Virus record (IMG/VR): IMGVR_UViG_3300045988_138394
Reading direction: 5' to 3' (one strand)
Length of the DNA stretch: 12,959 bases
Origin: a virus
Shown here: positions 1 to 12,959 of the stretch, piece by piece
How the letters are laid out: each line of letters starts with the position of its first letter
How positions within the stretch are numbered: the stretch's first letter is position 1
Made by a program: the position numbers and the translations under genes
Notes under the pieces: generated by a model
The model's database searches: none
The model's input: the letters and a program-made list of their open reading frames with translations, nothing else
Told to the model about the DNA's origin: nothing

Positions 1-14
1 TCCCCCATGATTTT

Positions 15-49
15 TATGCAAGATACACAAAGGCCATGCGTGTCAATAG
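15..49. repeat. ITR-internal direct repeat unit, copy 1 (mirrored at 12911..12945)
   Basis: TATGCAAGATACACAAAgGCC-5nt-TGTCAATAG recurs 65 bp downstream (80..114). The TATGCAAGATACACAAA and TGTCAATAG blocks are identical between copies. Confidence 0.85.
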
Positions 50-79
50 GCAAATTACACAAAAATAAAGCTCAAAAAC

Positions 80-114
80 TATGCAAGATACACAAAAGCC
101 CAATTTGTCAATAG
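80..114. repeat. ITR-internal direct repeat unit, copy 2 (mirrored at 12846..12880)
   Basis: TATGCAAGATACACAAAaGCC-5nt-TGTCAATAG, a direct repeat of 15..49. Confidence 0.85.
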
Positions 115-221
115 TGCAACATCAACAAAAAATCACCGCTGAATTTATGCACATTGCACAATTTCCAATATCTAGCAAAAAAGTGCGGTTTGTTTGCGCA
201 TTGTGTACAAATTGTATAAAA

Positions 222-242
222 TATATTACGTAGCGTAATATA
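222..242. promoter_or_regulatory. 21-bp palindrome (TATATTACG-TAG-CGTAATATA), candidate operator upstream of the late promoter
   Basis: Perfect 9-bp arms around a 3-bp spacer. It lies just inside the left ITR boundary, 35 bp upstream of the -35 box at 277. Confidence 0.35.
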
Positions 243-276
243 AAAAGTTACAACCTGTAAACTATTTTGTAGTATA

Positions 277-305
277 TTGACATTACTGGTTATATGGGTT
301 ATACT
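277..305 (+). promoter_or_regulatory. sigma70/sigmaA-type promoter of the plus-strand structural/lysis operon
   Basis: TTGACA (277..282), a 17-nt spacer, then TATACT (300..305). It faces the holin gene and no other plus-strand promoter-like site lies closer to 417. Confidence 0.7.
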
Positions 306-315
306 GTATACATAA

Positions 316-384
316 GGGCGGCGGACAGGTGCAGCGCCGGAAGCGCGTCCATGCTCTAGCACGGGGCATAAGCCGCCCGATTTT
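316..384 (+). ncRNA. Structured RNA element (three-way junction plus U tract): candidate small RNA or 5' leader attenuator
   Basis: P1 pairs 316-322 GGGCGGC with 372-378 GCCGCCC. P2 pairs 323-326/347-350 and 334-337/343-346, with a 7-nt bulge AGGUGCA and loop CGGAA. P3 pairs 351-356/364-369 with loop UAGCACG. UUUU follows at 381-384. The element starts about 4 nt after the predicted transcription start. Confidence 0.35.
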
Positions 385-416
385 ATAATATATCCGGCTG
401 AATTGGAGGAATAAAG

Positions 417-794
417 ATGCCTGTAAAAATTGTTATCATTGCCGTGCTTGTCGCTATACTCCTTGATTACGCGGTCGGAACGATTCGCGCGCTCTACTAT
501 TTGCAGACGGGCAACGAAGCGGATAAAGCCAAGTGGTGGACGTCGCGCAAAATGTGGGAGGGCATCGTGCACAAGGCGACCGAGGTTGTATTACTTTTTG
601 TTGCTCACGGTATTGATTTAGCCGCACCTTATTTTAACTTGCAGCTCCCGATATGCCTTATGGATTTTGTTGCTGCCTTTTTGGTTATTATGGAGTTAGG
701 CAGTGTGTTAGAGAATCTGCGTGACCTTAACCCCGGACTGTCCAAACCGATTGACACCATCGAACACTTTACGGGGGTGGACAAGCATGACTAA
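417..794 (+). CDS. Holin (phage holin family 4 / toxin-secretion-lysis holin type)
   Basis: GGAGGA lies 6 nt upstream of the ATG. The 125-aa product has hydrophobic segments and the pattern LDYAVGTI...W.SRKMWEGIVHK...IMELGSVLENL, typical of Phage_holin_4 proteins (recollection). Confidence 0.85.
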   Translation: MPVKIVIIAVLVAILLDYAVGTIRALYYLQTGNEADKAKWWTSRKMWEGIVHKATEVVLLFVAHGIDLAAPYFNLQLPICLMDFVAAFLVIMELGSVLENLRDLNPGLSKPIDTIEHFTGVDKHD

Positions 795-1104
795 AGAATA
801 TCGTCTGACAGCCGAAATTACAGACGGCAAACTGGTCATAGCGAAACAGGACGGCAGCGCTTTTGAAGTTGTCGCAACACCCGTTGAAAACGGCGCAAAG
901 TTTCCGGCGGTAGGTTTTGGCGCAATAGGCGCGGTAACCACGGTGTTACAGGCGCTGTTGCGCTACTACGGACACAAAATATCCATTGACGGTATTTTCG
1001 GTGCTGATACGCGCGCGGCTGTCGTAGATTTTCAGACCGCGTGCAACATTCCGGTAGATGGTTATGTTTCACGTGAAACATGGGCAAAACTTTTGGAGGG
1101 ATAA
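787..1104 (+). CDS. Stand-alone peptidoglycan-binding domain protein (PG_binding_1-like), 105 aa
   Basis: The C-terminal half, VLQALLRYYGHKISIDGIFGADTRAAVVDFQTACNIPVDGYVSRETWAKLL, fits the PG_binding_1 consensus (LQ..L...G....DG.FG..T..AV..FQ.....DG.....TW..L). I prefer ATG 787 (GGGGGTGG 6 nt upstream, overlapping the holin stop) to the track's GTG at 721. Confidence 0.8.
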   Translation: MTKEYRLTAEITDGKLVIAKQDGSAFEVVATPVENGAKFPAVGFGAIGAVTTVLQALLRYYGHKISIDGIFGADTRAAVVDFQTACNIPVDGYVSRETWAKLLEG

Positions 1105-1107
1105 TAT

Positions 1108-1443
1108 ATGACAATTGACGACGTTTTGGCATTGGCGCGCTCCGGATATACCCGCGATGAGATAGCGGCATTGAACCAGCCCCCGCAGCAGCAGCATGCA
1201 CCCGCAGCACCCGCAGCACCCGCAGCACCCGCAGCACCCGCACCCGCAGCACCCGCAGCACCCGCACCCGAAGCACCTGCACCCGAAGCCGTCCCGGCAT
1301 GGGCAGAAGCGCTCAATACCAGTATTGCAGCTTTGACTCAGCGCATAACGGCAATTAATATCGGCGGTACAATCCCCGCACAGCAGCCGCAGACGGTTGA
1401 CGCGATACTTGCGGAGATTATCGCGCCGCAGCCGAAAAAGTAA
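1108..1443 (+). CDS. Putative scaffolding protein with a Pro/Ala-rich repeat linker
   Basis: GGAGGG RBS. The 111-aa gene lies immediately upstream of the capsid gene, in the position of phi29 gp7. The function is inferred from position and size only. Confidence 0.5.
   Translation: MTIDDVLALARSGYTRDEIAALNQPPQQQHAPAAPAAPAAPAAPAPAAPAAPAPEAPAPEAVPAWAEALNTSIAALTQRITAINIGGTIPAQQPQTVDAILAEIIAPQPKK
1201..1290 (+). repeat. In-frame 9/6-bp microsatellite (CCCGCAGCA / CCCGCA)n encoding PAAPAAPAAPAAPAPAAPAAPAPEAPAPEA
   Basis: Direct reading: four consecutive CCCGCAGCA units from 1201, then mixed CCCGCA / CCCGCAGCA / CCCGAAGCA units up to 1290. Confidence 0.9.
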
Positions 1444-1460
1444 CAGGAGGTAACAACAAA

Positions 1461-2639
1461 ATGCCCGTAAACACTCTCAGTTTTAACCAGCTCTCGACGC
1501 TGCTTAACGGCATCGCGTCGCAGGCTACGGGCGCGGCTAGTATCGCGCCCGTTAACACCAACGAGTTTGTATCAGTCGCACAGACGGCTCTGCTCGCCGG
1601 TGCAGACCCGGTAATGTCCGCCATATCGCAGATACTTGGTCGTAGCATTTTTAGTATCCGTCCCTATAACGCAAAGTTTAGGGGTCTGCTGATGGATAAT
1701 CAGCGTTGGGGGGGCATTACCCGCAAAATCAACTACGTTGATAAATCGTTTACCAACGATAGTGGTTTTGCGCTCACTGACGGCGAGGCTATAGACCAGT
1801 ACACTGTCAACAAGCCGGAGGTCGTACAGACGAACTATTACGGCTCCAATATTTACCAGAAAAGTATCACCATTTTTAGAGATCAGCTTGATACGGCGTT
1901 TAGCGGCGTCGACCAGTTTGCGGAGTTTATCGGCGGGGTAACGCAGAATATCTCCGACCAGATAGAGCAGGCGCACGAAAACACCGCGCGCATGACCGTT
2001 GCAAACCTTGTCACCGGCATCATAGCTGCGGCAAAGGCAAACCAGATTGTACATCTCCTCACCGAGTATAACGCGGTGACCGGTCTTGAGCTGACAGCGA
2101 CCACGGTGTATACTCCTGCAAACTTTAAACCGTTTATGCAGTGGGTCTACTCCCGCATTGCGCAGGTGTCATCCATGCTTACCGAGCGTAGCCAGACATA
2201 TCACTTTAATCTCACGGGCAAGCCCATACAGCGCCACACTCCGTATGATCGGCAGCGGCTCTATCTCTATGCCGCTGGGCGCTACCAGTCCGAGGCGCAG
2301 GTGCTCGCGGACACTTACCACGATAACTATCTCCGTTTCGGCGAAACTGAGACTGTCAATTTCTGGCAGTCAATCGAGAAGCCTGACCAGATACAGGCGA
2401 AGCCCTGCTATCTCAAGGAGGCAGACGGCACGGTTATCACCGCCGCAGATAATGTCACACAGGCAAATGTTTTTGCAGTGATGATGGACGAGGAGGCTGC
2501 AGGCATGAACATATTTAATTATGAGCTGACCAGCACGCCGTACAACGCTCGCGGCAGATACAACAATTTGTGGTGGAGCTTCAACGAGCGCTACTTCAAC
2601 GATTTCACCGAGAACGCGGTTGTTTTCCTCCTTGACTAA
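1461..2639 (+). CDS. Major capsid protein (phi29 gp8-like, HK97 fold, no C-terminal Ig-like domain)
   Basis: AGGAGG RBS, 392 aa. The C-terminal block NARGRYNNLWWSFNERYFNDFTENAVVF resembles the phi29 gp8 block [28 protein letters not shown] (from memory). The gene is followed by a strong terminator. Confidence 0.8.
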   Translation: MPVNTLSFNQLSTLLNGIASQATGAASIAPVNTNEFVSVAQTALLAGADPVMSAISQILGRSIFSIRPYNAKFRGLLMDNQRWGGITRKINYVDKSFTNDSGFALTDGEAIDQYTVNKPEVVQTNYYGSNIYQKSITIFRDQLDTAFSGVDQFAEFIGGVTQNISDQIEQAHENTARMTVANLVTGIIAAAKANQIVHLLTEYNAVTGLELTATTVYTPANFKPFMQWVYSRIAQVSSMLTERSQTYHFNLTGKPIQRHTPYDRQRLYLYAAGRYQSEAQVLADTYHDNYLRFGETETVNFWQSIEKPDQIQAKPCYLKEADGTVITAADNVTQANVFAVMMDEEAAGMNIFNYELTSTPYNARGRYNNLWWSFNERYFNDFTENAVVFLLD

Positions 2640-2654
2640 TCGCGTTTCAAGATA

Positions 2655-2683
2655 CAGCCCCGGTAACACGGGGCTGTTTTGTT
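2655..2683 (+). terminator. Rho-independent terminator/attenuator after the capsid gene
   Basis: CAGCCCCG (2655-2662), loop GTAACA, CGGGGCTG (2669-2676), then TTTTGTT. Confidence 0.75.
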
Positions 2684-2694
2684 AGGAGCATGAA

Positions 2695-4251
2695 ATGATA
2701 ACAATTAAACTCTATCAGTTTGCCAAGCGCACAAACAGCACAAAACGTCCGAATGACCAGACGGACACGGTGCAGGTTTTTGACGGCAATATAGCCAACG
2801 CTACGAGCATGTTAACTCCCACGGTTATTGTTGATTTTACGTCACTCAAAGTTGGCAATGCCTCATACAATCCGTTGCCGTGGACTTATGCATTTATCGT
2901 CGAGTTGCGGCGGTACTATTTTGTAACCAATTGGACGTGGGCAAACGGTGTATATTATGCGGATTTGGCTGTTGATGTATTGGCAACATTTAAAGCAGAG
3001 ATTTACGCAAGCACTTTATATGTCACTAGAGCATCAAAAGCTTTTGATGGGCTTGTGCCTGATACTCTATATCCAGCGGTCGCTAATGTCGACCATGTAA
3101 CCACAACAAAAGCCACACCATGGGAGACTAGTTTTGAGAGTGACAACGGTACATTTTTAGTTGCTACAATGTCAGGTGATAGGACAAGCACCGCGGGCAT
3201 ATCATATTATGTTATGGGCTTGTCATCGTTTAGGACGTTTATGTACAATACGTTTAATTCGGTTGATTGGCTAAATATACCGGCGTCAGAAATATCACAG
3301 TCATTGCAAAAAGTTTTGTTTAATCCCTCACAGTACGTGATATCCGTTATGTGGTTCCCCAAGATTTTAATTGGCGGCGGCGATACAGACCCAATTGACC
3401 ATGTACGAGTTGGTTGGTGGGCAATCCCAATAGGCGGCGGCTACAAGCTGCAAGGCAATTTGTGGGAGTCCGGCGAGCAAACAATAACGATTCCTAAGCA
3501 TCCACAAGCTGAAGATAGGGGTGCTTGGTGCAATCTCTCTCCATATAGTACATATAGTCTTGAGTTTTGGCCGTTTGGGCAAATTGCCCTTGACAGCTCC
3601 AAACTTGTGGGGATTACCACGCTTAAATTGTCATATGTAATTGACTATCTCACAGGCGCGGCAACTCTACGCGTAACCGGCAATCTGACGGACTCCGCAA
3701 TAGCGATAACAAGCGCGCAGTTAGGTGTGCCGATATCCCTCGCGCACATTACGTATGATTTGTCGCAGTTATCTAATATGTCAACATGGGTGGCCACAGC
3801 TGGTGCCGCACTGCTGCAAAACCCGGATATTGTAAAGACCGCTGTTAAAGATGTTGTGTTGGGAGCGCCTGTAAAGCGTTTTGACTACGCAGGATATTTT
3901 AACGGCACGCGCGAGGATGTCGGGGAATCAGCAAATACGGGTTTGACATTTAGCGAGGTTGCGAACTCTATCGGCAACGCGCTTGGCGCGGTTATTGGTA
4001 GCGGGCAGACAAGCGGCGTTAATGGCAGCACAGCACAACTTGGTTTGGGTATGCGCGTTAATGCTGATTTTATGCTGCTTGCACCCGATGACAACGAGCA
4101 CAACGGCAGGCCGCTTTGTATAAAAGCGCAACTATCCACGCTCGCGCCCGGTTTTGTCAAATGTCAATCCGGAGATATCGAGGTTAATTGCCCGGCAGCA
4201 GAACGCAACGCAATTAACACCTTTTTGACAGGAGGCGTGTACCTCGAATGA
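2695..4251 (+). CDS. Tail knob / distal tail tube protein (phi29 gp9-like)
   Basis: 518 aa. The N-terminal blocks WTYAFIVEL...DLAVDVLATF resemble phi29 gp9 WFYAFVTEL...EIDVLQTW. A Gly/Ala-rich loop (IGNALGAVIGSGQTSGVNGS) is present. The C-terminal GFVKCQSGDIEVNCPAAERNAINTFLTGGVYLE resembles gp9 [33 protein letters not shown] (from memory). Confidence 0.65.
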   Translation: MITIKLYQFAKRTNSTKRPNDQTDTVQVFDGNIANATSMLTPTVIVDFTSLKVGNASYNPLPWTYAFIVELRRYYFVTNWTWANGVYYADLAVDVLATFKAEIYASTLYVTRASKAFDGLVPDTLYPAVANVDHVTTTKATPWETSFESDNGTFLVATMSGDRTSTAGISYYVMGLSSFRTFMYNTFNSVDWLNIPASEISQSLQKVLFNPSQYVISVMWFPKILIGGGDTDPIDHVRVGWWAIPIGGGYKLQGNLWESGEQTITIPKHPQAEDRGAWCNLSPYSTYSLEFWPFGQIALDSSKLVGITTLKLSYVIDYLTGAATLRVTGNLTDSAIAITSAQLGVPISLAHITYDLSQLSNMSTWVATAGAALLQNPDIVKTAVKDVVLGAPVKRFDYAGYFNGTREDVGESANTGLTFSEVANSIGNALGAVIGSGQTSGVNGSTAQLGLGMRVNADFMLLAPDDNEHNGRPLCIKAQLSTLAPGFVKCQSGDIEVNCPAAERNAINTFLTGGVYLE

Positions 4252-4790
4252 GTTGGACAGCTAAAAACGCGGCTCTATCTCAAAGTGAGATGGAGGGCAA
4301 CGCGACAGAGATATATTATGACCTCAAATCACGCGGATGGAGCACCGAGGCCATAGCGGCAACTCTCGGCAACATGCAAGCGGAGTCGCTTATAAATCCG
4401 GGCGCATGGCAAAATTACATTGTCGGCAGTGGTGGCGGCGGTGGCTACGGCCTTGTCCAGTGGACTCCGTGGACACATTTTACTGACTACGCTGACCGCT
4501 GGGGAGTTGCACACGATGACGGCAACGCGCAGCTCCGGTGGATTGACGAGGTAACCGTGCCTTTTGGTCAGTGGGTACCCACAGCAGCATATCCTATGAG
4601 TTTTGCCAGCTACAAAATTAGCACAGAAGCTTGTGAATACCTGTCAACCGTCTTTTTGTACAATTTTGAGCGTCCTGCCGAATATAACATTGTGACACGG
4701 CAGCAGTATGCGCGCGTGTGGTATGACTTTATAACAAAGTTGCCCACGTCAAAAGGTATCCCGATTTGGCTGTTGTTTAAATTTAACTAG
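4248..4790 (+). CDS. Tail-associated lysozyme (phage tail lysozyme, phi29 gp13 N-domain type)
   Basis: ATGA overlap with the knob stop. The motif AIAATLGNMQAESLINPGAWQ....GGGGGYGLVQWT matches the GN...ES..NP ... GG.G..QWT signature of the Phage_lysozyme2 family (recollection). Confidence 0.8.
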   Translation: MSWTAKNAALSQSEMEGNATEIYYDLKSRGWSTEAIAATLGNMQAESLINPGAWQNYIVGSGGGGGYGLVQWTPWTHFTDYADRWGVAHDDGNAQLRWIDEVTVPFGQWVPTAAYPMSFASYKISTEACEYLSTVFLYNFERPAEYNIVTRQQYARVWYDFITKLPTSKGIPIWLLFKFN

Positions 4791-4801
4791 GTGGTGATAC
4801 A

Positions 4802-5707
4802 ATGGCACAGCCCCCATTTTTTTACAATTATATGAATGTTGCTATGTCCGGTGTCGAGCCGAACATGCTGCATGTGCTCGATAGCGAGCAAGGCCGATTT
4901 TTCCAGCGGTATTTGCTGAAAAAGGCATTGTCCGTTTTTAAATGGCGAGTGCCGGAAAACTGGAATAAGGACTATTTTTTGTATACGCTGTATTGTTACG
5001 GCTATGTTGCAATCATCAATACCAACGCATACGGCGTAATTCCACAGATATGCACGCTCAGCGGGTACAATGTCTTTTATCAGCCCACAACTGCGATTAT
5101 TGCAAATCCGTATTTGCGAGGTATCAAAACTCCGCGTATCGGTACGGAGTGTGCATTAATCAAGCTACAGCCCGATTACTGCGGTGTTATGGATTTGTGC
5201 GCACACTATGCAGCTAAAATGGCGCTTATCTCCAGCAGTATTGATAGCAACTTATTTAACAGCCGCGTTGCGTATGTCTTTTTTGCTAGTAACAATGCCT
5301 CGGCGACAAGTTTTAAAAAACTGGCTGACGACATCGCTAGCGGACATGCGGCAACCGTAGTTGACAAGCAGCTTAAATCCGCAGACGGCAAACTCGATTA
5401 TGAGATTTTTAATCGTGATGTTAAAGCATCATATATCGTGTCTGACCTCATATCCGATTTGCGCAAAATCGAGGCAGAGTTTGATACCAAAATCGGTATA
5501 CCCAACGCCAACACCGACAAGCGCGAGCGGCTTATTGCCGACGAGGTCAATGCAAACAACTTTGAGACAAACGCAATGGTGGGTATGTGGTTAGATAATA
5601 TCAACCTCAGCATCACCCAGGCTGAAGAGCTGTTTGGCGCTCTTGATATATCTGTAGATTGGAGGGATGATTATGCGAGCGACAATGTCAGTCGCGGGGC
5701 TGTATAA
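4802..5707 (+). CDS. Portal / upper collar connector protein (phi29 gp10-like)
   Basis: GGTGGTG RBS, 301 aa (phi29 gp10 is about 309 aa). The block KIGIPNANTDKRERLIADEVNAN resembles gp10 [23 protein letters not shown]. The N-terminal FFQRYLLKKALSVFKW resembles the gp10 YLNYLQSLAYQLFEW region (from memory). Confidence 0.8.
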   Translation: MAQPPFFYNYMNVAMSGVEPNMLHVLDSEQGRFFQRYLLKKALSVFKWRVPENWNKDYFLYTLYCYGYVAIINTNAYGVIPQICTLSGYNVFYQPTTAIIANPYLRGIKTPRIGTECALIKLQPDYCGVMDLCAHYAAKMALISSSIDSNLFNSRVAYVFFASNNASATSFKKLADDIASGHAATVVDKQLKSADGKLDYEIFNRDVKASYIVSDLISDLRKIEAEFDTKIGIPNANTDKRERLIADEVNANNFETNAMVGMWLDNINLSITQAEELFGALDISVDWRDDYASDNVSRGAV

Positions 5708-6221: not shown

Positions 6222-6231
6222 GGAGGCGTTT

Positions 6232-6564
6232 ATGATTACATATCCGTACACAAATTATCAGGATGCAAACCTTGATTGGATTTTAACCGTCGGAGCGGAG
6301 TTGCGCGCGTGTTTTGAGCCGGTCGAGGTTAGCGGCACTGATAGTTATAAGGAGCTTGTACGACGTGGAGCACTGGCAACTATCAGATACACGGATGTCA
6401 CATACACTGACAGTCTGTCAATTATACTCCCCGTTAGTCGTATTGACGAAGCGAGCCAAAAGCTCTATTTTACTGGCACATATCACAACGGCACTCGTTT
6501 TGTTGCCGTAGCCGTCACAGTTGATTATTATGGCAATATTGCCGCGACACGTAAACTGCTATGA
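6232..6564 (+). CDS. Small virion-associated protein sharing the N-terminal anchor motif of the fibre (110 aa)
   Basis: AAGGAGG RBS. The N-terminus MITYPYTNYQDANLDWIL parallels MINKYPYTNYQDINLDWLL of the next gene. The rest is unrelated and looks beta-rich. Confidence 0.55.
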   Translation: MITYPYTNYQDANLDWILTVGAELRACFEPVEVSGTDSYKELVRRGALATIRYTDVTYTDSLSIILPVSRIDEASQKLYFTGTYHNGTRFVAVAVTVDYYGNIAATRKLL

Positions 6565-7394: not shown

Positions 7395-7398
7395 AAAA

Positions 7399-7424
7399 GC
7401 ACCCCGGAGAAATCTCCGGGGTGT
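7399..7424. terminator. Bidirectional rho-independent terminator between the convergent operons
   Basis: CACCCCGGA (7400-7408) pairs with TCCGGGGTG (7415-7423). It is flanked by AAAAAA on the left, which gives a U6 tract for the minus-strand transcript, and by TTGCTT on the right. Confidence 0.8.
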
Positions 7425-7441
7425 TGCTTATGAAACGCGGG

Positions 7442-7777
7442 TCATACCAGTTCGCAGGTGATAAAGGTGCGTCCGGCTTTAGACTCACGCTTGATGACGC
7501 GAATGTCGTACGGTTCGCCGCTCATCAGTTCAGCGATGTACGCAAATTCATCTTTAAACGTGGGGGAGTTGGTCGTAAACACGTTTCCGGCCACGTCCTT
7601 GACAGCAAGGATTTCAACCTCATTGCCCTTGCTGTTGACGTCGGTATACAGCGCCCAAGCGTCGGGGGTGATTTCTGCGCCGTTGTCGACGTTCTTAAGA
7701 CTGATACTCTGACCTCTGGTCAGGGCGTAAATGTCGCGCTTGCTCATGTCGGCTTTGTTGGTGTTGATGATGTTCAT
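7442..7777 (-). CDS. Probable single-stranded DNA-binding protein (phi29 gp5-like)
   Basis: AAAGGAGA RBS, 111 aa. Length and pattern (SLKNVDNGAEI...A...Y.DV...G.....I.A....G..F.T.S..F...........E.....V......KAGRTFITCEL) resemble phi29 p5 (SFKNLPDGTIIEANAIAQYKQV...SSKGNVFFSLQL) from memory. The gene has its own strong promoter, as expected for an abundant protein. Confidence 0.5.
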   Translation of the reverse strand: MNIINTNKADMSKRDIYALTRGQSISLKNVDNGAEITPDAWALYTDVNSKGNEVEILAVKDVAGNVFTTNSPTFKDEFAYIAELMSGEPYDIRVIKRESKAGRTFITCELV

Positions 7778-7828
7778 TTGTGTTTCTCCTTTAAAATATT
7801 TTGTGTTCCCGTCCTTTCGGACAAGTCC

Positions 7829-7857
7829 ATTATAAGCCTGCGGCTGTTTTTTGTCAA
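7829..7857 (-). promoter_or_regulatory. Consensus sigma70/sigmaA promoter driving the SSB-like gene
   Basis: The minus strand reads TTGACA (7857-7852), a 17-nt spacer, then TATAAT (7834-7829). A GTCC-GAAA-GGAC hairpin follows in the leader. Confidence 0.75.
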
Positions 7858-7890
7858 GTTTCTTCTTTCACCGTTTACAATTTGTTTACA

Positions 7891-9888
7891 TTACCATTGT
7901 TTGCGCATATTGTCCAGCGTTTCGGCATCTGCTTGCATTATTGCCCGATAATCATCCGTAACACCAACGGTATACGTACTGTCATACAGATACGCATTAA
8001 TGCCTATTGGCAGCTCGCGCCCGTCTACATGATACACGCCGTATGGCTCGTCATTATATTTGATATCCAGCCCCGCAGCGGCGCGGAATACGAAGCCGTC
8101 GCGCAAGTTGGCAATGTCGCCCAACTCTGCCGCGCCTAGCTTTTTATTAACGCCTGACACTGTGATATGCAGTTGTTCATCGTCGCCGATATAGGCGTAT
8201 TTTTTCGCGCCGAGAGTTACAAATTTCTTACAATGTTTGTCAAATTCATAAACGCCTAAATAATGCCGTTCGCCGTTGATATCATCCGCATACGCACCAT
8301 TTCTAATGGCTGTCGCGCGGATTTCGGTATTTAAATCCGTAAAGTCAACGTCGCCGACAAAGTACACGCTATCTGTATCAGCATAGACAAATTGTTCGCC
8401 GCACAGGTCAATTGCCCGTTGCAGCCAATACCGCGCCCAAGCTGTAACCCACGCGCCCCATTGATAGGCGCAAAACGGTTTGCGCTGTCCCATTTCAAGC
8501 AGTTCCATTTCGGTTTTAAACTTGGGATGTTCCGGTAGGGGCGGCGCGAAGTCTGTTCCGTTAAACAAACAAGGCGTTCTAATAGGGTTCGTTGCCGTCA
8601 TACCGTATATACTGTTTAACTTGTTCTTCGACTTCATGTAAAACACGCCGTCCGGGTCTGCCTCGCTGTTGTTCTTTAATTCGGTTTTCCTGCGGTAATA
8701 GTCCATTGTAGTTTGTATCATGCCGTCAGGTAACACGCCGTATTCGCTGCACCAACAATCAACCACCGCAGCACTAGCCCACTTGTATTGCCTTTTAATG
8801 ATATCCAAGTCAATGTCAGTCACATACATAGTTAAGGTAGCCGCTTGCATTACGCGCCCGTTGTCTTGCCAACTATCAATTAGTCCGGTACACTTGTGCG
8901 CCGACACATACGGGCAGGGGTACATCAAGTCTTTCAGCTCAAAATGCGCGAACTCCACACGCGCCACATATGGAGTTTTACCGGGCAGCGCGTCAACTGT
9001 GGTTATATTGCGGCGCATAAATTTTTTAACAGGAAACGGCATATTAACAATAACATCGGGATAGCTGCTAGCCCTGTCATATGATGATACGTCCGACAAT
9101 ATTACACCGGCGTAAAATTTATTGGCGTGTGTGTTGCCGCCGCGAAACGCTCTGCGCAGCGCCACATATAAGTCATAGTCAGGTTGTATTACGCGCAAAT
9201 ACTTTGTATAGCTGTGCATTGCTCGTTTAAAGTCCCGACGCACATACCCCGTTGATGATATCGGTATTGTGGTTAATGTGTCGCCGTCTACTTGCATTAG
9301 CTTTTTTAACGCTTGCCACAGTCCGACAACATCTGCGGCGGCGTATTCAAGTTCACTTTCTGTTAACGCTGTCCATGGATAACGGCGTTTTTTATAGTCT
9401 AGTTCTGTCTTTTGCACTGGTACTTGCATTTTACGTAAAAACTCGCGCAACGACATGTTTGTCAGAAAGTAGCTGCAACGGAATTCAACATTGCCAATAT
9501 CAAACCGGACAGGCCGACGCGACTTTACCGCAAAAACATCTTCTTCGGTAAACGTTGCAATATTGCGTAAAAATTGGAACTCATACGCGGCATTATGTAT
9601 ATAGCAGACAAAACGCGCGTCGTTTGGTAATGCGTCGTTAATGTGATGCAGCGCGTCGGAAAACTCTCGCCACGTACGGCCAATAATCAACAACCCGTCA
9701 ATGCATAGTTGCCACACATACATAACGGCTTGTTCAATTTCTGGTATATTTGTCGTCTCAATGTCAAACGTTCCAAAAACTTCCACATAGCGGCGCTTTA
9801 GGTTTTTCGGCTTTCTTCCCGGCGCTAGCTTTTCTACGGCGGCGTTACTTATGACAGTATAATCAAAACTTGCCGCCGTATATATCAT
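7891..9888 (-). CDS. Family B DNA polymerase, protein-primed type (phi29 gp2-like)
   Basis: Exo I FDIETT, Exo II YIHNAAYEFQF, Exo III EYAAADV, motif A YDRASSYPD, motif B KNKLNSIYG, TAWARY, motif C VYADTDSVY and KxY GAKKYAY are all present in the canonical order. ATGA overlap with the upstream gene. Confidence 0.95.
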   Translation of the reverse strand: MIYTAASFDYTVISNAAVEKLAPGRKPKNLKRRYVEVFGTFDIETTNIPEIEQAVMYVWQLCIDGLLIIGRTWREFSDALHHINDALPNDARFVCYIHNAAYEFQFLRNIATFTEEDVFAVKSRRPVRFDIGNVEFRCSYFLTNMSLREFLRKMQVPVQKTELDYKKRRYPWTALTESELEYAAADVVGLWQALKKLMQVDGDTLTTIPISSTGYVRRDFKRAMHSYTKYLRVIQPDYDLYVALRRAFRGGNTHANKFYAGVILSDVSSYDRASSYPDVIVNMPFPVKKFMRRNITTVDALPGKTPYVARVEFAHFELKDLMYPCPYVSAHKCTGLIDSWQDNGRVMQAATLTMYVTDIDLDIIKRQYKWASAAVVDCWCSEYGVLPDGMIQTTMDYYRRKTELKNNSEADPDGVFYMKSKNKLNSIYGMTATNPIRTPCLFNGTDFAPPLPEHPKFKTEMELLEMGQRKPFCAYQWGAWVTAWARYWLQRAIDLCGEQFVYADTDSVYFVGDVDFTDLNTEIRATAIRNGAYADDINGERHYLGVYEFDKHCKKFVTLGAKKYAYIGDDEQLHITVSGVNKKLGAAELGDIANLRDGFVFRAAAGLDIKYNDEPYGVYHVDGRELPIGINAYLYDSTYTVGVTDDYRAIMQADAETLDNMRKQW

Positions 9889-10418
9889 TGATACATTCCC
9901 CCTTGTTTCTTGTATATGTCATAATTTGACCAAAAATCCGCTGCGCTGCTAGATTGCGAATTCTGATATACGTTAAAATCGCTTGCGGCGCGTTCACTGG
10001 ACACACCGCCCGGCGCGTACAGTCTCCACGCCCGCATAAAGTTTTCAAAAGTTTCAAGCTCCGGCGGCGTTAATGTCCGAGATAGTCGCTGTTCTATTTC
10101 CTTCAACCGCTTCCGGCTTTCCGTCACGGTTTTTTCCACGCGCAGTACTGACGCGGCGAAAACTAGGGCTTTTCCGACTGCTTTGTCATTGCCTGTCTTT
10201 TTCAGCGCCGTTGTCGTTGGTAGCGCCGCCCGAAGTTGGCTTGCCCGCTCCGGCGTAACAAAACCGGCTTTTTCAAGTCGCATCAAGCGCTTCATTTCCA
10301 CTCTGCGTAAACGACGGTATTCTTTTTCTATTTCTTCCGACGTCCGCGACGGATTAATATACGCGTAGTATGGTGTATATTCGCCCGCTTCAAAATTAAA
10401 CATTGCTTGTTTAGCCAA
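9885..10418 (-). CDS. Putative terminal protein (replication primer)
   Basis: The gene is immediately upstream of, and translationally coupled to, the protein-primed polymerase, as in phi29 gp3-gp2. It has a basic helical N-region (EKEYRRLRRVEMKRLMRLEK) and a Ser/Tyr-rich C-terminus. TTG start at 10418 with GGGGGG 9 nt upstream (one intervening T, then CTATTTAA); the alternative ATG is at 10403. I recognise no sequence motif. Confidence 0.5.
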   Translation of the reverse strand: MAKQAMFNFEAGEYTPYYAYINPSRTSEEIEKEYRRLRRVEMKRLMRLEKAGFVTPERASQLRAALPTTTALKKTGNDKAVGKALVFAASVLRVEKTVTESRKRLKEIEQRLSRTLTPPELETFENFMRAWRLYAPGGVSSERAASDFNVYQNSQSSSAADFWSNYDIYKKQGGMYQ

Positions 10419-11451
10419 TTAAATAGACCCCCCGGAAAAATGTTTTTGTTTCCACGTCGGAAAACAAAATCTCATGTCGTAAGTATGCGTCCCACAGCCA
10501 ATAATATTTTCGGCGCAGCGCTGTGCGCCCATCCGGGCTGTTGTTGTAAAGTTCCGGCGCTCCGGACACGTGCGCACACATGTAATAGCCGTTTCCGCTT
10601 TTGTGGCGGTACACACAGTACCCGCCACACGCAGCCACCGCAATATATTCGCCTAGTGGCTTTGCTGCTATGTCTGTATAGCTGTCGGCGGCAAAATCGT
10701 TTTCGATGGCCATTCGGGCAAAGTCCCCAGTTGTGACCGCGCGATATAGCGCCGTCGCCGACTTCATTCCGGCTATCGGGCTATCTTGCAGCAGCACAAC
10801 GGCAACGCCGCGCCGCTTGTCTATGTTGACCGATTGGCCGCGCCGGTGCATTGTTTCGATAGTCTTAATCAGCCCAAACGCTTGCAAGATTGCAGCGTCG
10901 TAGTTGTTCGCGTTGGCTAACATAACTAGCTTAATGGGCGGTTGTCCTTTTAACTCGCGGTTACGGTTGATTGATTCATACATGTTCAGTATTGCTGCGT
11001 CCTCATTCTTTATGCGGCGTTCGTGTACCTCTGGTATGCATTCGTCATACAGGATTATCTGACACTGTGACATATCAAACGACCTTGCATTACTGATTGT
11101 TGACAGCGCTAAAGTGTAGCCAACAGGCGCACCAAGAGGTTTTATTTTGCCGTCGTCCGCTGTCTCGCCGTGGTAGTATGCGCCGATATACTTATTCACA
11201 GCGGCAGCTGTGTATATCTCACCTCTATCTGCTGCTACGGGATTCAGCGGCATAAAATCCGGCTGCTGCACTAGCTCTTGCTGTGACGCTGTGCGGCGTA
11301 GGTAAATAAATGGCTGATAATTGTCTAGTACCTCGACAAATGCGCCGTAAGTCTTACCTGTTCCGCGCCCGCCTATACACAGGATAAAGGGCACGGGAAT
11401 GTTAATTATACTATGCATATCGGCATATCCGTTTTTGTTATATAGCTTCAT
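10411..11451 (-). CDS. DNA encapsidation ATPase (phi29 gp16-like)
   Basis: Walker A ILCIGGRGTGKTYGA, then FIYLRRT (phi29 FIYVRRY), Walker B IILYDECIPE (phi29 TIVFDEFIRE) and NRNRE...LANANN (phi29 FRNRER...LSNAVS). I prefer the start at ATG 11451 (MKLYNKNG...), which places Walker A at the same distance from the N-terminus as in gp16. The track's 11496 start adds 15 aa. Confidence 0.9.
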   Translation of the reverse strand: MKLYNKNGYADMHSIINIPVPFILCIGGRGTGKTYGAFVEVLDNYQPFIYLRRTASQQELVQQPDFMPLNPVAADRGEIYTAAAVNKYIGAYYHGETADDGKIKPLGAPVGYTLALSTISNARSFDMSQCQIILYDECIPEVHERRIKNEDAAILNMYESINRNRELKGQPPIKLVMLANANNYDAAILQAFGLIKTIETMHRRGQSVNIDKRRGVAVVLLQDSPIAGMKSATALYRAVTTGDFARMAIENDFAADSYTDIAAKPLGEYIAVAACGGYCVYRHKSGNGYYMCAHVSGAPELYNNSPDGRTALRRKYYWLWDAYLRHEILFSDVETKTFFRGVYLIG

Positions 11452-11668
11452 AATCAACGCCCACAATCTGGATAACACACGTATCCGGCACATCATCCGG
11501 CAACTTACCTATCGCCGTAAACTGTATGTTATTCGGCTGCTGTGGCATTTTATACAAAATGCCGTTAGCCGCTCTCCGCGCCGCCGCTAGTGTGTCTGCG
11601 ACGGCGTAACCTATGTACATAGCCGGGCGGCTATCCACGGTCGCGATAATGTTATATACTCTTTTCAT
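11438..11668 (-). CDS. Hypothetical early protein (76 aa)
   Basis: The ORF sits in operon polarity. Its ATG shares one nucleotide with the upstream stop (TAATG) and its 3' end overlaps the ATPase start by 14 nt. I recognise no motif. Confidence 0.6.
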   Translation of the reverse strand: MKRVYNIIATVDSRPAMYIGYAVADTLAAARRAANGILYKMPQQPNNIQFTAIGKLPDDVPDTCVIQIVGVDYEAI

Positions 11669-11853
11669 TAGCGCCGCACCTCAACATTTAACCAATTTTC
11701 TTTGTTGCGCGCAGTCCGCTCAATTATGCACCGCGCGGGCACTGCATATATTTTTTTGAATCCGTCCTCATTGACAACAAAATAGCGATAACCGCGACAG
11801 TCAATATATGATTCTGCACGTACGCGCGCCGCGAACTCAGATGTTATAACCAT
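11668..11853 (-). CDS. Small early protein, paralog B (about 61-62 aa)
   Basis: AGGGGG RBS, then ATGATG; the second ATG at 11853 has the better spacing. Collinear similarity to the 60-aa ORF at 12142..12324: I(T/S).EFA, YRY(F/I), C, NW..(L/V)EVR(R/A). Confidence 0.65.
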   Translation of the reverse strand: MVITSEFAARVRAESYIDCRGYRYFVVNEDGFKKIYAVPARCIIERTARNKENWLNVEVRR

Positions 11854-12145
11854 CATAATACCCCCTTATGCTTATACTTATTAAATGCTTTTCAATGTCA
11901 TTCAGTTTTATTCCGACTTCTTCGAGCACACGCTCGCCGAATGGTGTGACCGCCGCTACAAGCTCTAGCAACGTCGCGCTTGCTCCGCTAAGTGCTTCTT
12001 TAAGCTGTTGATAGCCCGTGCATCGTAATGCCGCGTTGTATAATTGGCGATATACAAAACCGTGATATACAATCCCTGCATTCTCAAGCTTTGCCGCCCA
12101 CTCGCCTAAATGGTCACGCCATTCGGCATATGACTTGTTTTTCAC
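11837..12145 (-). CDS. Hypothetical early protein (102 aa from a GTG start)
   Basis: GGAGGTG lies 6 nt upstream of GTG 12145, which overlaps the upstream stop as GTGA. The track's longer 122-aa version would overlap the upstream gene by 64 nt with no RBS. Confidence 0.6.
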   Translation of the reverse strand: MKNKSYAEWRDHLGEWAAKLENAGIVYHGFVYRQLYNAALRCTGYQQLKEALSGASATLLELVAAVTPFGERVLEEVGIKLNDIEKHLISISIRGYYDGYNI

Positions 12146-12324
12146 GCTCTCACCTCCAGACGCTCCCAATTGCACCAGTCCAAAGCAGCCGTCGTTCCGA
12201 CGCACTCAAGCGATATCCGCCAATAGTATTCGCTGCGATTGATGTATCTGTATCTTTTTGTGTCGTACACGCCTGTTTGAGTGCCGCTAATTTTCTTTGC
12301 GAATTCTTTAGATATTGTTTTCAT
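12142..12324 (-). CDS. Small early protein, paralog A (60 aa)
   Basis: AAAGGAGC RBS 6 nt upstream of the ATG. Paralogous to 11668..11853 (see that entry). Confidence 0.65.
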   Translation of the reverse strand: MKTISKEFAKKISGTQTGVYDTKRYRYINRSEYYWRISLECVGTTAALDWCNWERLEVRA

Positions 12325-12339
12325 TTGTTGCTCCTTTCT

Positions 12340-12359
12340 GGGCGGTTTAGCCGCCGCCC
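12340..12359 (-). other. GC-rich intercistronic hairpin sharing the AGGGCGGCGG 10-mer with the late-operon leader
   Basis: The minus strand reads AGGGCGGCGGCUAAACCGCCC, forming a GGGCGG/CCGCCC stem. No U tract follows. It lies between the first and second early genes. Confidence 0.4.
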
Positions 12360-12383
12360 TCCGGCTTGTTATTATTTTATAAG

Positions 12384-12668
12384 TTACACCGCTGTAGTGT
12401 CTTTACTGACAACGTTGTCGCAGTACAAGCCGCCAGACTTGTAAGCCCTTTTCATGCACCATAAAAATGTGTCCATCAAGTCGGCAAAGCGCGAATCTTC
12501 GGTGTAATATTCCGCAATGTCGCCATCTTCTGCGGTCAAATCGCCATAGTCTATATCATCGTCTACGACACCGCTTATAAACCATCCCTCTAGCACATCC
12601 TCATCATTAATTTGTCGTGCGATGTACTCCATTGCCTTTACCATTTTAACTCTTTCTTCTGTATTCAT
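12384..12668 (-). CDS. Strongly acidic first early protein (94 aa)
   Basis: AAGGAGAG RBS. This is the first gene downstream of the early promoter. I count about 22 Asp+Glu against about 9 Lys+Arg, with clusters DDDIDYGDLTAEDGDIAEYYTED. Confidence 0.7.
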   Translation of the reverse strand: MNTEERVKMVKAMEYIARQINDEDVLEGWFISGVVDDDIDYGDLTAEDGDIAEYYTEDSRFADLMDTFLWCMKRAYKSGGLYCDNVVSKDTTAV

Positions 12669-12697
12669 TTTTAAATTCTCTCCTTTGTTATTTTGTG

Positions 12698-12731
12698 ATT
12701 ATATATTACCACAAATATTCCCGAAAAACAA
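12698..12731 (-). promoter_or_regulatory. Candidate early promoter of the minus-strand operon
   Basis: The minus strand reads TTGTTT (12731-12726), a 17-nt spacer, then TAATAT (12708-12703). An overlapping TATAAT lies at 12703-12698. The site sits between the right ITR and the first early gene. Confidence 0.45.
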
Positions 12732-12743
12732 CAACAAAATAAT

Positions 12744-12959
12744 TACAATTTGTACACAATGCGCAAACAAACCGCACTTTTTTGCTAGATATTGGAAATT
12801 GTGCAATGTGCATAAATTCAGCGGTGATTTTTTGTTGATGTTGCACTATTGACAAATTGGGCTTTTGTGTATCTTGCATAGTTTTTGAGCTTTATTTTTG
12901 TGTAATTTGCCTATTGACACGCATGGCCTTTGTGTATCTTGCATAAAAATCATGGGGGA
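12744..12959. repeat. Right inverted terminal repeat (216 bp)
   Basis: Exact reverse complement of 1..216. It ends in ...CATGGGGGA, mirroring the 5' TCCCCCATG at position 1. Confidence 0.95.

Follow-up and report, generated by a model that had tools for sequence, protein, structure and literature searches.

Phage phi29 of Bacillus (Salasmaviridae, 19,282 bp) has linear DNA with inverted terminal repeats (ITRs), a protein-primed family-B DNA polymerase (PolB) with TPR1- and TPR2-length inserts and, directly 5' of the polymerase gene, a gene in the terminal-protein position. Sliding-back at terminal reiterations is established biology of phi29 and PRD1. Smaller relatives are on record as well: many phi29-related gut genomes of 12–16 kb were already included in a 2024 review, the tail knob of the Astrithrvirus group is split into two genes, and Acinetobacter phage Phanie is reported to practise tail piracy, borrowing the tail of another phage (PMC11476376). 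The CE and D loops of packaging RNAs (pRNAs) are complementary and vary in sequence among pRNAs (PMC5066667).

The window analysed here, a stretch of 12,959 nt, shares with phi29 the linear ITR-bearing organization, the polymerase with both inserts and the gene in the terminal-protein position, and it encodes homologues of the gp5 single-stranded DNA-binding protein (SSB), gp8 capsid, gp9 knob, gp10 portal, gp11 collar, gp13 lysozyme domain and gp16 ATPase. We interpret it, with a probability of about 0.88, as the near-complete linear genome of an uncultivated, phi29-like, protein-primed podovirus of the human gut, which stands alone and has a three-unit transcription layout and a leader RNA of its own. 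This agrees with the sequence-only reading insofar as the latter had recognized a phi29-like podovirus with a compact core gene set.

The window contains 19 genes, which matches both the earlier estimate (about 19) and independent gene calls on an identical contig in ENA (12,637 bp, corresponding to window positions 162–12798). Coding density is 92% and GC content 48.1%. Pfam searches with the window proteins returned Phi29_MCP, Phage_connector, Phage_lysozyme2, Podovirus_Gp16, DNA_pol_B_2, a holin, PG_binding_1 and a Gp10_C fibre domain, and thus bore out the polymerase, gp16-like ATPase, gp8-like capsid, gp10-like portal and gp13-like lysozyme named before. The very small genome, the lack of a classical endolysin catalytic domain in Pfam searches (besides the tail lysozyme) and the tail piracy reported for Phanie (PMC11476376) might suggest that the sequence is not an autonomous phage but a helper-dependent element of the Phanie type, a linear plasmid or a piece of a larger genome. 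We consider this highly improbable, given that the virion set is full (capsid, portal, collar, single-gene knob, lysozyme, two appendage proteins, holin and packaging ATPase) and that hundreds of relatives have the same size, none of them lying inside a larger contig. The exact PolB of the window is present on six contigs, all of at most 20 kb. More than 536 capsid relatives are found in IMG/VR on contigs of at most 14.5 kb, and the knob protein has at least 673 homologs at cluster level, none on a contig longer than 14.3 kb; ten MAG contigs with a knob gene (5–15 kb) all stand alone, none being located within a chromosome. Overall, contigs carrying relatives are 15 kb or shorter.

These numbers also revise the earlier view that the genome is near-minimal and rare, few tailed phages being this small. 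GenBank isolates of 10.4–12.3 kb include Vibrio K58 g2, Shigella vB_SHGBLB0004, astrithr, Phanie and Amedibacillus AD70P2. The genome is not rare, as hundreds of similar small phages exist in public data, and we place the phage in a very large clade, as yet without a family name, whose members have genomes of 11–15 kb. Four near-full-length relatives have the same 19-gene map at 65–79% intergenomic similarity. The host is probably a Gram-positive member of the Clostridia, as weakly hinted at by the holin_4_1 and PG_binding_1 domains and by a lysozyme that is closest to those of Hungatella and C. symbiosum phages; MAG binning pointed to contradictory hosts.

The perfect 216-bp ITRs noticed at both window edges were confirmed: the arms (1–216 and 12744–12959) are 100% complementary over 216 nt. 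Three phased 18-nt units, TAKGCAARWTACACAAAR, are located in the left arm within 15–97 (15–32, 47–64 and 80–97; repeat families D8–D10 and D7) at a spacing of 32–33 nt, with mirror copies in the right arm, and may serve as binding sites for a protein that acts at the origin or organizes the ends. The sequence-only reading had called the genome complete. This holds for a stand-alone and essentially whole genome but not for its extreme ends, because contigs of two close relatives continue past the position homologous to window base 1, L023 by 14 nt and L118 by 31 nt. The two contigs originate from separate studies (ITR identity 91–97%), their extensions agree with each other, and the 14-nt extension looks like one more ITR repeat unit in the same phase and not like a fold-back of the terminus. 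We conclude from these overruns that the physical ends probably lie outside the window, with at least 31 nt likely to be missing on each side. Alternatively, the window could be complete to its last base, with 5'-TCCCCC at both termini and with the extensions of the relatives reflecting strain differences or assembly artefacts. The symmetry of the window ends fits such a model, as do the right end of L018, which stops no more than 1 nt from the homologous position at TTCCCCATC, and the observation that contigs with the exact PolB, holin or g94 never exceed the window in length. However, both window ends represent one collapsed assembly-graph repeat, and their symmetry is therefore automatic and no independent sign of true termini. 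Moreover, one 5' T followed by C5 would provide no terminal reiteration for sliding-back. Along with the concordant extensions, this renders completeness to the last base improbable. The window itself spans about 13 kb; adding some 31 nt per end would bring the genome to about 13.02 kb or more.

Genes for replication and packaging are encoded on the minus strand. The SSB (7442–7777) is of the phi29 gp5 type: hhalign of its family against gp5, with a probability of 96% and an E value of 2e-9, substantiated the earlier assignment, and Pfam gave a weak match (PF17427, 0.0043). For the polymerase (7891–9888; PF03175), phi29 DNA polymerase 1xhx was the sole sequence match in PDB (E 4.5e-9), and the alignment spans ExoIII, motif A, TPR1, motif B, a TPR2-length insert and motif C. 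The adjacent gene (9885–10418), which overlaps the polymerase start by ATGA, codes for a putative terminal protein of 177 amino acids (pI 9.7) with an all-helical model. Of 86 family members, 61 are located directly 5' of PolB; residues Y34, T97 and S141 are conserved, the last of them being the candidate priming residue. Position, charge and conservation speak for the proposed identity, which nonetheless stays putative since hhalign and other sequence and fold searches linked it neither to phi29 gp3 nor to any other annotated terminal protein. Next to it lies the gp16-type packaging ATPase gene (10411–11496, with the start at 11496 or 11451; PF05894, E 1.7e-10; PDB matches 7jq6 and 7jqq). A gene order unlike that of phi29, with the ATPase in the replication arm, had been noted correctly; within this clade, however, the arrangement is the norm and not a departure. 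Five small early genes, g76, g61, g102, g60 and g94 (11438–12668), yielded no matches in Pfam and PHROG searches. Their region is hypervariable and does not align with close relatives, and the g94 product is acidic (pI 4.1). By analogy with phi29, the polymerase would start from the terminal protein at ITR-borne origins, assisted by SSB made from its own strong promoter.

Virion and lysis genes are found on the plus strand, beginning with a holin gene (417–794; PF05105 Phage_holin_4_1, E 9e-16). It is followed by a gene (787–1104; called on L001) for a 105-amino-acid protein with a C-terminal peptidoglycan-binding domain (PF01471, E 2.5e-15) and no recognizable catalytic domain. The next gene (1108–1443) specifies an acidic protein of 111 amino acids with a PAAPA repeat, whose family (84 members) is kept across the clade. 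Its position directly 5' of the capsid gene makes it a putative scaffolding protein; Pfam and PHROG searches gave no match, and hhalign against phi29 gp7 was negative. The major capsid protein (MCP; 1461–2639) matches PF25622 over its full length (E 1e-18). The gp9-like knob proposed previously (518 amino acids, 2695–4251) was corroborated by an AlphaFold model (pLDDT 75) that Foldseek aligned with 5fb5 (E 3e-12, probability 1.00, TM about 0.48); an internal low-confidence segment (350–441) coincides with the long loop of gp9. The tail-associated lysozyme (4248–4790; PF18013, E 9e-31) has its counterpart solely in the N-terminal domain of phi29 gp13, and in tblastn it was 38–40% identical to gp13 of phi29 and B103 and 56% to Hungatella phage CH17P1. 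Portal (upper collar; 4802–5707; PF05352, E 6e-18) and lower collar or tail tube (5673–6221) are of the gp10 and gp11 types, the latter matching gp11 over its full length by family hhalign (probability 94.4%, E 1.7e-8) despite being shortened (182 versus 293 amino acids). A 110-amino-acid appendage-associated protein (6232–6564; repeat family D5) and the tail fibre or receptor-binding protein with its Gp10_C domain (6561–7394; PF21939, E 5e-19) have in their translations a common N-terminal motif, YPYTNYQDxNLDW, that is kept in L006 and L007. The fibre gene contains an Ala-rich tandem repeat (6690–7013; period 108 nt, 2.5 copies, 97% matches by TRF), of which L002 has one unit fewer. We propose that the gp16-type ATPase packages DNA via the gp10-type portal into the phi29-type capsid, and that the tail consists of the shortened gp11 collar, the single-gene gp9 knob, on which the gp13-type lysozyme would be carried, and exchangeable fibres.

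Transcription is organized in three units, namely the early arm, SSB and the late operon, and not in two convergent operons only as previously supposed, because a separate consensus promoter (TTGACA-17-TATAAT, 7829–7857, minus strand; 12 of 12 consensus positions) serves the SSB gene. The early arm, from g94 to PolB, would be transcribed leftward from a likely promoter of the extended −10 type (TGgTAATAT/TATAAT; 12698–12711, minus strand) that sits within the 75 nt of unique sequence bordering the right ITR on its inner side. The late promoter (TTGACA-17-TATACT, 277–305, plus strand) agrees with the consensus at 11 of 12 positions and is predicted to drive a 7-kb operon extending from holin to fibre. 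A terminator-like hairpin (2654–2677, plus strand; nine pairs, seven of them G-C, then a T run) follows the capsid gene, and another hairpin terminator (7400–7423; ten pairs, eight of them G-C, then a minus-strand T run) is located where the converging units meet. The late promoter appears to be constitutive, and we identified no late regulator.

Directly 3' of the late promoter lies a conserved structured leader RNA (312–382, plus strand), a previously undescribed folded RNA without a match in Rfam, whose layout resembles that of the phi29 packaging RNA. Our covariance model R2 finds it once in the window (83.8 bits, E 2e-21). It is 64–71 nt long and present in the window and at 55 loci of relatives, invariably 3' of a TTGACA-17-TATAAT-type promoter, which was recovered in every relative examined, and 15–50 nt 5' of the ribosome-binding site (RBS) of the first late gene. 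The outer helix P1 (316–322 paired with 372–378) encloses two arms. One comprises P2a (GGAC/GUCC), a 5'-side bulge (AGGUGCA) and P2b, capped by an invariant C-GGAA-G; the other is hairpin P3 with loop AGCAC, whose GCAC pairs with GUGC of the bulge. Across 51 distinct sequences, 88.6% of the cells were paired as compared with 36–43% in slid controls. Bulge and loop are complementary over 3–6 bp in all 51, by means of about 28 different helix sequences, and the observed mean for own-bulge–own-loop helices was reached in none of 2000 permutations. G-U pairs occur on the plus strand only. Accordingly folded, the late transcript would begin with a three-way junction held by the covarying bulge–loop helix.

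What this RNA does can be approached from two sides. The order and dimensions of its helices fit the prohead-binding domain of pRNA as in Rfam RF00044: in both, a 5'/3' helix closes a three-way junction, of which one arm consists of an inner helix bulged on the 5' side only, a 4-bp helix and a hairpin, and the other of a 6-bp helix and a 5-nt loop. Its bulge and loop are complementary and covary, as do the CE and D loops of pRNAs (PMC5066667), and its length is comparable to that of pRNA bases 22–84. The element, driven by a consensus promoter and followed after P1 by an AU-rich single-stranded linker, is confined to phages with a gp16-type ATPase, and it lies directly 3' of the ATPase gene at 40 of 55 loci. 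One might therefore envisage a miniature packaging RNA, a functional analogue or possible distant homologue of phi29 pRNA that is released by cleavage at the start of the abundant late transcript, forms a ring on the prohead portal via intermolecular bulge–loop pairing and helps to dock the ATPase. Several findings make us doubtful. The RF00044 model, which scores phi29 pRNA at 145 bits, has no match here even at E≤10, and there is no sequence similarity; the outer helix measures 7–11 bp as opposed to about 25 bp for the ATPase-docking A helix, and the C-like helix 4 bp versus 9 bp. The junction has its unpaired bases between P3 and P1, whereas in pRNA they separate the C and D helices, and the invariant GGAA loop is a further difference. 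In place of a separate early transcript as in phi29, the element is the 5'-terminal part of the late mRNA, with no terminator ahead of the nearby RBS. Where the replication and ATPase arm is inverted, as in the window, it has stayed with the late promoter and not with the ATPase gene; model R2 does not find it in phi29, Amedibacillus AD70P2 or astrithr; and the covariation is accounted for just as well by a pseudoknot within one molecule. The more likely reading, which we favour at slightly better than even odds, is a cis-acting leader that would influence how stable the late-operon transcript is, how well it is translated or how often transcription passes the internal terminator 3' of the capsid gene. 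A cis-regulatory role is weakened by the constitutive look of the late promoter and by the absence of an identified late regulator with which the leader could interact. Purine and THF riboswitch aptamers and the HK022 put antitermination RNA likewise combine a 5' leader position with a three-way junction stabilized by a tertiary helix and few invariant unpaired bases; the RNA described here differs from them in having no Rfam match and no evident expression platform or terminator.

Compared with phi29 (19.3 kb, 27 genes, ITRs of 6 nt), the window is smaller (13 kb, 19 genes) and has ITRs of at least 216 nt. Its late operon starts with the holin gene, the gp13 counterpart has no peptidase half, and homologues of gp4, gp6, gp8.5 and gp12 were not detected. 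The capsid sequence reaches no Salasmaviridae record in tblastn. Astrithrvirus and its relatives (Salmonella astrithr, Acinetobacter Phanie, Pectobacterium DU_PP_III and Vibrio K58 g2; 10.4–11.9 kb) are also small and phi29-related, with PolB followed by the ATPase and with PolB and MCP about 30% and 24% identical to those of the window, but they infect Gram-negative hosts and have a split knob gene where the window has a single one. The nearest cultured relatives are Amedibacillus AD70P2 and AD70P3 (Guelinviridae according to NCBI), which at 12.3 kb are of similar size and have ITRs of 55 nt. Identity is very low (PolB 35%, MCP 29%), with portal, knob, collar and ATPase still detectable, and these phages differ by a GC content of 27% (48% in the window) and by having all genes on one strand. 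Uncultivated human-gut genomes deposited as 'Bacteriophage sp.' (MT835998, MT836263 and others, 12–14 kb) and the IMG/VR and MAG contigs L008–L112 belong to the same clade as the window. They have the core set, a size of 11–15 kb, ITRs and, for the most part, the same promoter-linked leader RNA, and their PolB is 36–45% and their MCP 39–58% identical; similarity is absent at the nucleotide level. Most of them are co-directional in the order terminal protein–PolB–SSB–ATPase–RNA–late genes, whereas in the subgroup of the window the replication arm is inverted.

The part of this genome worth pursuing is a leader RNA of its late operon, which is compact, absent from Rfam, marked by very strong covariation and carried by most members of the phage's clade. 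The genome around it is bounded by a perfect inverted terminal repeat (ITR) of 216 nt, whose arms (1–216 and 12744–12959) lie at both edges of the 12,959-bp window, and holds 19 genes, a count given both by the ORF listing and by gene calls made independently on a public contig of identical sequence. Ten genes are read from the plus strand (417–7394) and nine from the minus strand (12668–7442), at a coding density of 92% and a GC content of 48.1%; ARAGORN found no tRNA or tmRNA gene in the window. Repeat analysis, ORFs and gene calls thus bear out the sequence-only reading as to the 216-nt ITRs and about 19 genes. Where it had counted two operons, however, there are three transcription units, the SSB gene having its own promoter.

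A consensus promoter (277–305, plus strand) heads the late operon, and a terminator-like hairpin lies 3' of the capsid gene (2654–2677). A perfect TTGACA-17-TATAAT promoter (7857–7829, minus strand) serves the SSB gene alone, which fits a demand for large amounts of SSB, and this gene shares as its terminator the hairpin that closes the converging units (7400–7423). The early arm most likely starts from a candidate promoter with an extended −10 element at about 12698–12711 (minus strand), within the 75-nt unique stretch that adjoins the right ITR on its inner side. Conservation is lowest in the small early genes (11670–12743), which cannot be aligned even with relatives of 75–79% overall similarity. 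Their first product, g94, is very acidic (pI 4.1), like DNA-mimic anti-restriction proteins.

Judged from its gene content, assignment to the phi29-like protein-primed podoviruses, an informal group made up of Salasmaviridae, Guelinviridae, Rountreeviridae, Madridviridae and unclassified relatives, is right. The polymerase (7891–9888, minus strand; DNA_pol_B_2, PF03175, E 1.7e-15) has phi29 DNAP as its sole match among PDB sequences, in an alignment that spans ExoIII, motif A, the TPR1 region, motif B, a TPR2-length insert and motif C; it is a PF03175 enzyme with the TPR1 and TPR2 insertions of protein-primed PolB. The ATPase (10411–11496, minus strand; Podovirus_Gp16, PF05894) matches the phi29-type encapsidation proteins of PDB entries 7jq6 and 7jqq and is of the gp16 type without a nuclease domain. 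Pfam further identified on the plus strand a holin (417–794), a PG_binding_1 protein of 105 aa (787–1104), the capsid protein (1461–2639; Phi29_MCP, PF25622), a Phage_lysozyme2 protein (4248–4790), the portal (4802–5707; Phage_connector, PF05352) and a Gp10_C fibre (6561–7394). When protein families built from all fetched loci were compared with phi29 proteins by hhalign, a gp5-type SSB of 111 aa (7442–7777, minus strand; 96%, E 2e-9 against gp5) and a shortened gp11-type lower collar of 182 aa (5673–6221, plus strand; 94%, E 2e-8 against gp11) were recovered. A profile of the tail knob family (518 aa in the window) found nothing among PDB sequences; the structure model of the protein (pLDDT 75, from a 29-sequence alignment) matches the phi29 gp9 crystal structure 5fb5 (Foldseek E 3e-12, probability 1.00), and its low-confidence internal stretch, residues 350–441, coincides with the position of the gp9 long loop. 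Capsid, portal, knob and lower collar are accordingly all of the phi29 type. PHROGs returned no match for any of the 10 unassigned ORFs, and hhalign gave negative results for g111 against gp7, for g110 against gp12, gp8.5 and gp13, and for the small early proteins against gp4, gp6 and gp1. A 9/15-nt periodic repeat at 1175–1296 produces a (P)AAPAAPA tract in the middle of g111, a putative scaffolding protein.

An ORF of 177 aa (9885–10418, minus strand) is a candidate for the terminal protein by position, charge and conservation. It overlaps the PolB start by ATGA, encodes the only strongly basic mid-sized protein (pI 9.7) and is all-helical in the predicted model; in 61 of 86 cases its family is found immediately ahead of PolB, and Y34, T97 and S141 are conserved. 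Neither sequence nor fold similarity to phi29 gp3 or any annotated terminal protein was detected when its profile was compared with PDB sequences, its model with PDB and BFVD, and its family with gp3 by hhalign. We therefore call it a putative terminal protein, which would be joined covalently to the 5' ends, with S141 as the predicted linked residue. Of the phi29 core set proposed by the sequence-only reading, PolB, SSB, ATPase, capsid, portal, knob and lysozyme are upheld by Pfam, Foldseek or hhalign; the putative terminal protein showed no homology to known ones.

Several features of the lysis and tail genes deserve mention. A classical endolysin is absent from the window, where the only peptidoglycan hydrolase domain is that of the gp13-type tail lysozyme (4248–4790), and the 105-aa protein adjoining the holin (787–1104) consists of little beyond its PG_binding_1 domain; lysis may employ a two-component lysin or the tail lysozyme in both roles. 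The lower collar (5673–6221) is about 110 aa shorter than phi29 gp11. Short collars have been linked to Gram-negative hosts in a 2024 review (PMC11476376), with which the Gram-positive-type lysis genes of this phage contrast. The fibre gene contains a tandem repeat of 108 nt (6690–7013; 36 aa, Ala-rich) whose copy number differs between samples: the fibre of contig L002 has exactly one unit fewer (241 aa vs 277 aa), and fibres of relatives measure 238–263 aa. The 110-aa protein and the fibre have in common an N-terminal motif, YPYTNYQDxNLDW (6232–6290 and 6561–6625), that is kept in distant relatives, whereas the remainder of the module can be exchanged; L020, a member of the window's subgroup, carries a collagen-repeat protein and a 159-aa protein (5460–6973) instead. 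The motif has the look of a docking peptide that stays conserved while the receptor-binding modules behind it are swapped.

The notion that so small a genome is rare has to be given up, as equally small or smaller phages have been cultured and IMG/VR holds hundreds of relatives. Cultured examples in GenBank are Vibrio K58 g2 (10.4 kb), Shigella vB_SHGBLB0004 (11.2 kb), Salmonella astrithr (11.6 kb), Acinetobacter Phanie (11.9 kb) and Amedibacillus AD70P2 (12.3 kb), alongside several 'Bacteriophage sp.' genomes of 12–14 kb from human faeces. The 2024 review (PMC11476376) sorts phi29-related viruses into about thirty capsid clusters and includes many gut genomes of 12–16 kb. The ATPase gene does sit among the replication genes, as had been noted, but this is the rule in the clade and not an unusual feature. 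Three things set the window apart. First, in GenBank phages megablast and blastn uncovered no relative at the nucleotide level (matches never exceeded 2% coverage). Second, the best protein identities to deposited phage records are 43% for PolB and 49% for the major capsid protein (MCP). Third, the window's subgroup (L018, L020, L022, L023, L116 and L118), with intergenomic similarities of 65–79%, has its replication/ATPase arm inverted relative to most relatives. No Salasmaviridae record was reached by tblastn with the MCP at E ≤ 1e-5, and PolB is less than 30% identical to that of Bacillus phages, which speaks against membership in Salasmaviridae. The nearest genomes labelled Guelinviridae at NCBI are the Amedibacillus phages (PolB 35%, MCP 29% identical), which form their own cluster in the 2024 review (PMC11476376); for the Clostridium members of that family PolB identity is about 22–34% and the MCP gave no match. 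Membership in Astrithrvirus was rejected on the grounds of no nucleotide match (at least 70% is required), PolB and MCP identities of 30% and 24%, and a single-gene knob as opposed to a split one. By these comparisons the phage adds a new species or genus to a large, recognised, still unnamed clade of tiny phi29-like gut phages.

Its Gram-positive-type holin, PG-binding domain and lysozyme likeness point weakly to a host among the Clostridia, predicted to be Lachnospiraceae or another member of that class, the tail lysozyme being closest to those of Hungatella (56%) and Clostridium symbiosum (47%) phages. Bin labels of metagenome-assembled genomes (MAGs) are spread over unrelated phyla and were for that reason not accepted as host evidence. 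Whole clade genomes (L008–L017) occur in MAGs labelled Collinsella, Bacteroidales, Thermoguttaceae, Enterousia, Limenecus and others, placements that look like binning errors.

As to extent, the window is the whole of a replicon of about 13 kb, to judge from the small stand-alone contigs on which relatives of its PolB, knob and capsid proteins sit. The exact PolB occurs on six public contigs, all of 20 kb or less, and one of the six (ENA ERZ28573062) is 100% identical to window positions 162–12798. The knob protein has at least 673 cluster-level homologs, every carrying contig being no longer than 14.3 kb, and the more than 536 capsid relatives in IMG/VR lie on contigs that are all 14.5 kb or shorter. 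Matches in bacterial and archaeal genome collections were without exception (10 of 10) stand-alone MAG contigs of 5–15 kb, binned into unrelated phyla. With hundreds of relatives all on small stand-alone contigs, a fragment or a prophage was ruled out.

The claim that the genome is complete at its exact ITR ends has to be toned down under the refuting condition that came with it, because contigs of relatives extend beyond the homologous end. Two subgroup members assembled in other studies, L023 and L118, have ITRs about 96–97% and about 91% identical to that of the window and run 14 nt (L023, 1–14) and 31 nt (L118, 12315–12345) past the base homologous to window position 1. Their extensions agree (CTTATAGCAAATAGTGG-AAATTGCACAAATT|TCCCCCATGA, with the junction …AAATTGCACAAATT|TCCCCC…), provide no fold-back of the terminus and resemble a further in-phase copy of an 18-nt ITR unit. 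Three copies of this unit (15–32, 47–64 and 80–97), spaced by 32–33 nt or about three helical turns, are mirrored at 12863–12945 and may be binding sites for an end-organising protein. A motif at 152–165, ATTGCACAATTTCC, is related to the 18-nt unit and resembles the terminal extension of the relatives. L023 starts with AAA, as do phi29-family genomes. In view of these extensions the window ITRs are probably truncated, and the small linear dsDNA genome with bounding ITRs is probably complete except for at least 31 nt missing at each end. Both ITR ends form one node in a de Bruijn graph; identical ends therefore arise automatically and are no marker of physical termini. Exact-protein look-ups with the holin and g94 yielded only k=119 contigs, which stop 97 nt inside the ITR, and neither IMG/VR nor the JGI metagenomes yielded the terminal motif when scanned for it. 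L018, in contrast to L023 and L118, stops within 1 nt of the window's end, which leaves the truncation no more than probable. Such assemblies can appear perfectly ITR-terminated yet lack true ends.

The leader RNA (312–382, plus strand), a three-way junction of 64–71 nt, occurs as a single copy in the window (83.8 bits with covariance model R2) and occupies the GC-rich segment between the late promoter and the holin gene. Its single-sequence folding energy is unremarkable (z = −1.3), and energy alone would thus have dismissed it. Relatives whose flanking sequence is only about 75% identical have nevertheless kept the segment almost unchanged, and in L032, a distant relative with a PolB 45% identical, the same core is joined to a wholly different yet still complementary closing stem. 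A covariance model built from six sequences retrieved 28 copies, and a second model built from those retrieved 55 copies in 100 loci, all on the strand of the capsid gene; carriers include the window, L018, L020, L022, L023, L029, L032 and about 50 IMG/VR and MAG loci. Three of five metagenome matches to a 21-nt core of the RNA (L028, L030 and L031) were discarded as chance hits in unrelated GC-rich DNA. No Rfam 15 model matched the leader RNA, either in a search of the whole window (E ≤ 1) or in one of the element by itself (E ≤ 10). The texts of two large collections of candidate RNAs from phages and microbiomes neither name nor interpret such a motif.

In the deduced structure helix P1 (7–11 bp) joins the 5' and 3' ends, the promoter spacing leaving only 4–8 nt upstream. 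P2a (4 bp) is followed by a bulge of 7–9 nt on the 5' side only and by P2b (4 bp), which is capped by an invariant C-GGAA-G; P3 (about 6 bp) carries a loop of about 5 nt and is separated by three unpaired bases from the return strand of P1. Among 51 distinct sequences 88.6% of cells are paired, vs 36–43% with slid partners, and the covariation score is 0.81 as compared with 0.17 for shuffles, none of 500 of which reached the observed value. G-U pairs on the plus strand place the structure in the RNA. In all 51 sequences bulge and P3 loop can form 3–6 Watson-Crick pairs, with about 28 different helix sequences across the set; the mean of 4.2 bp vs 2.7 bp for mismatched partners was not attained in any of 2000 permutations. 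As this helix was not built into the covariance models, it constitutes independent evidence. Either an intramolecular pseudoknot or an intermolecular kiss fits the sequence data.

A promoter of the TTGACA-17-TATAAT type ends 4–10 nt 5' of P1 in every case examined, and the ribosome-binding site of the first late gene follows 15–50 nt after the RNA, without a consistent terminator in the interval. On the upstream side, the nearest gene to end is that of the packaging ATPase in 40 of the 55 loci; downstream, the first recognised family is a scaffold-like protein in 51. In the rearranged subgroup of the window the RNA stays with the late promoter. On account of the invariable position, the continuity with the mRNA and this retention on rearrangement, we favour a cis-acting leader of the late operon, at a probability of roughly 0.55. 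It could influence how stable the 5' end is, how the first gene is translated, or whether transcription reads through the terminator that follows the capsid gene. As a cis-acting element it would define a new class of late-operon leader, carried by phages without a recognisable late-gene regulator.

It is tempting to compare the element with the prohead (packaging) RNA of phi29, of which it might be a miniature, although we regard this as rather unlikely. All phages that carry it use a gp16-type ATPase, but it lacks a defined 3' end and is itself absent from phi29, AD70P2 and astrithr. Nor does it resemble RF00044, the Rfam model of phi29 pRNA, which had no match in the window at E ≤ 1 or in 290–430 at E ≤ 10 and scored 145 bits on phi29 as positive control. 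The likeness lies in architecture. As in the prohead-binding domain of phi29 pRNA (bases 22–84), the helices have this order and these sizes, the bulge is confined to the 5' side, the loop has 5 nt, bulge and loop are complementary and covary, and the whole measures about 70 nt. In phi29 a ring is assembled on the portal through base pairing between the CE bulge of one molecule and the D loop of the next (PMC5066667 and the Rfam structure line), and a 5'-side bulge complementary to the hairpin loop of the other arm is likewise present in the leader RNA. By contrast, the A helix of phi29 pRNA, which docks the ATPase, comprises about 25 bp as compared with the 7–11 bp of P1. Should the leader RNA nevertheless serve in packaging, an RNA component of the motor would not be peculiar to Bacillus phi29 relatives but widespread, and presumably ancient, in the abundant 11–15 kb phi29-like phages of animal guts, where it would be stripped to about 70 nt. 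Two reviews (PMC5066667, PMC11476376) restrict the known occurrence of packaging RNA to phi29 and its Bacillus relatives; with a pRNA-like fold in a distant and abundant branch, the origin and generality of RNA-assisted packaging become directly testable.
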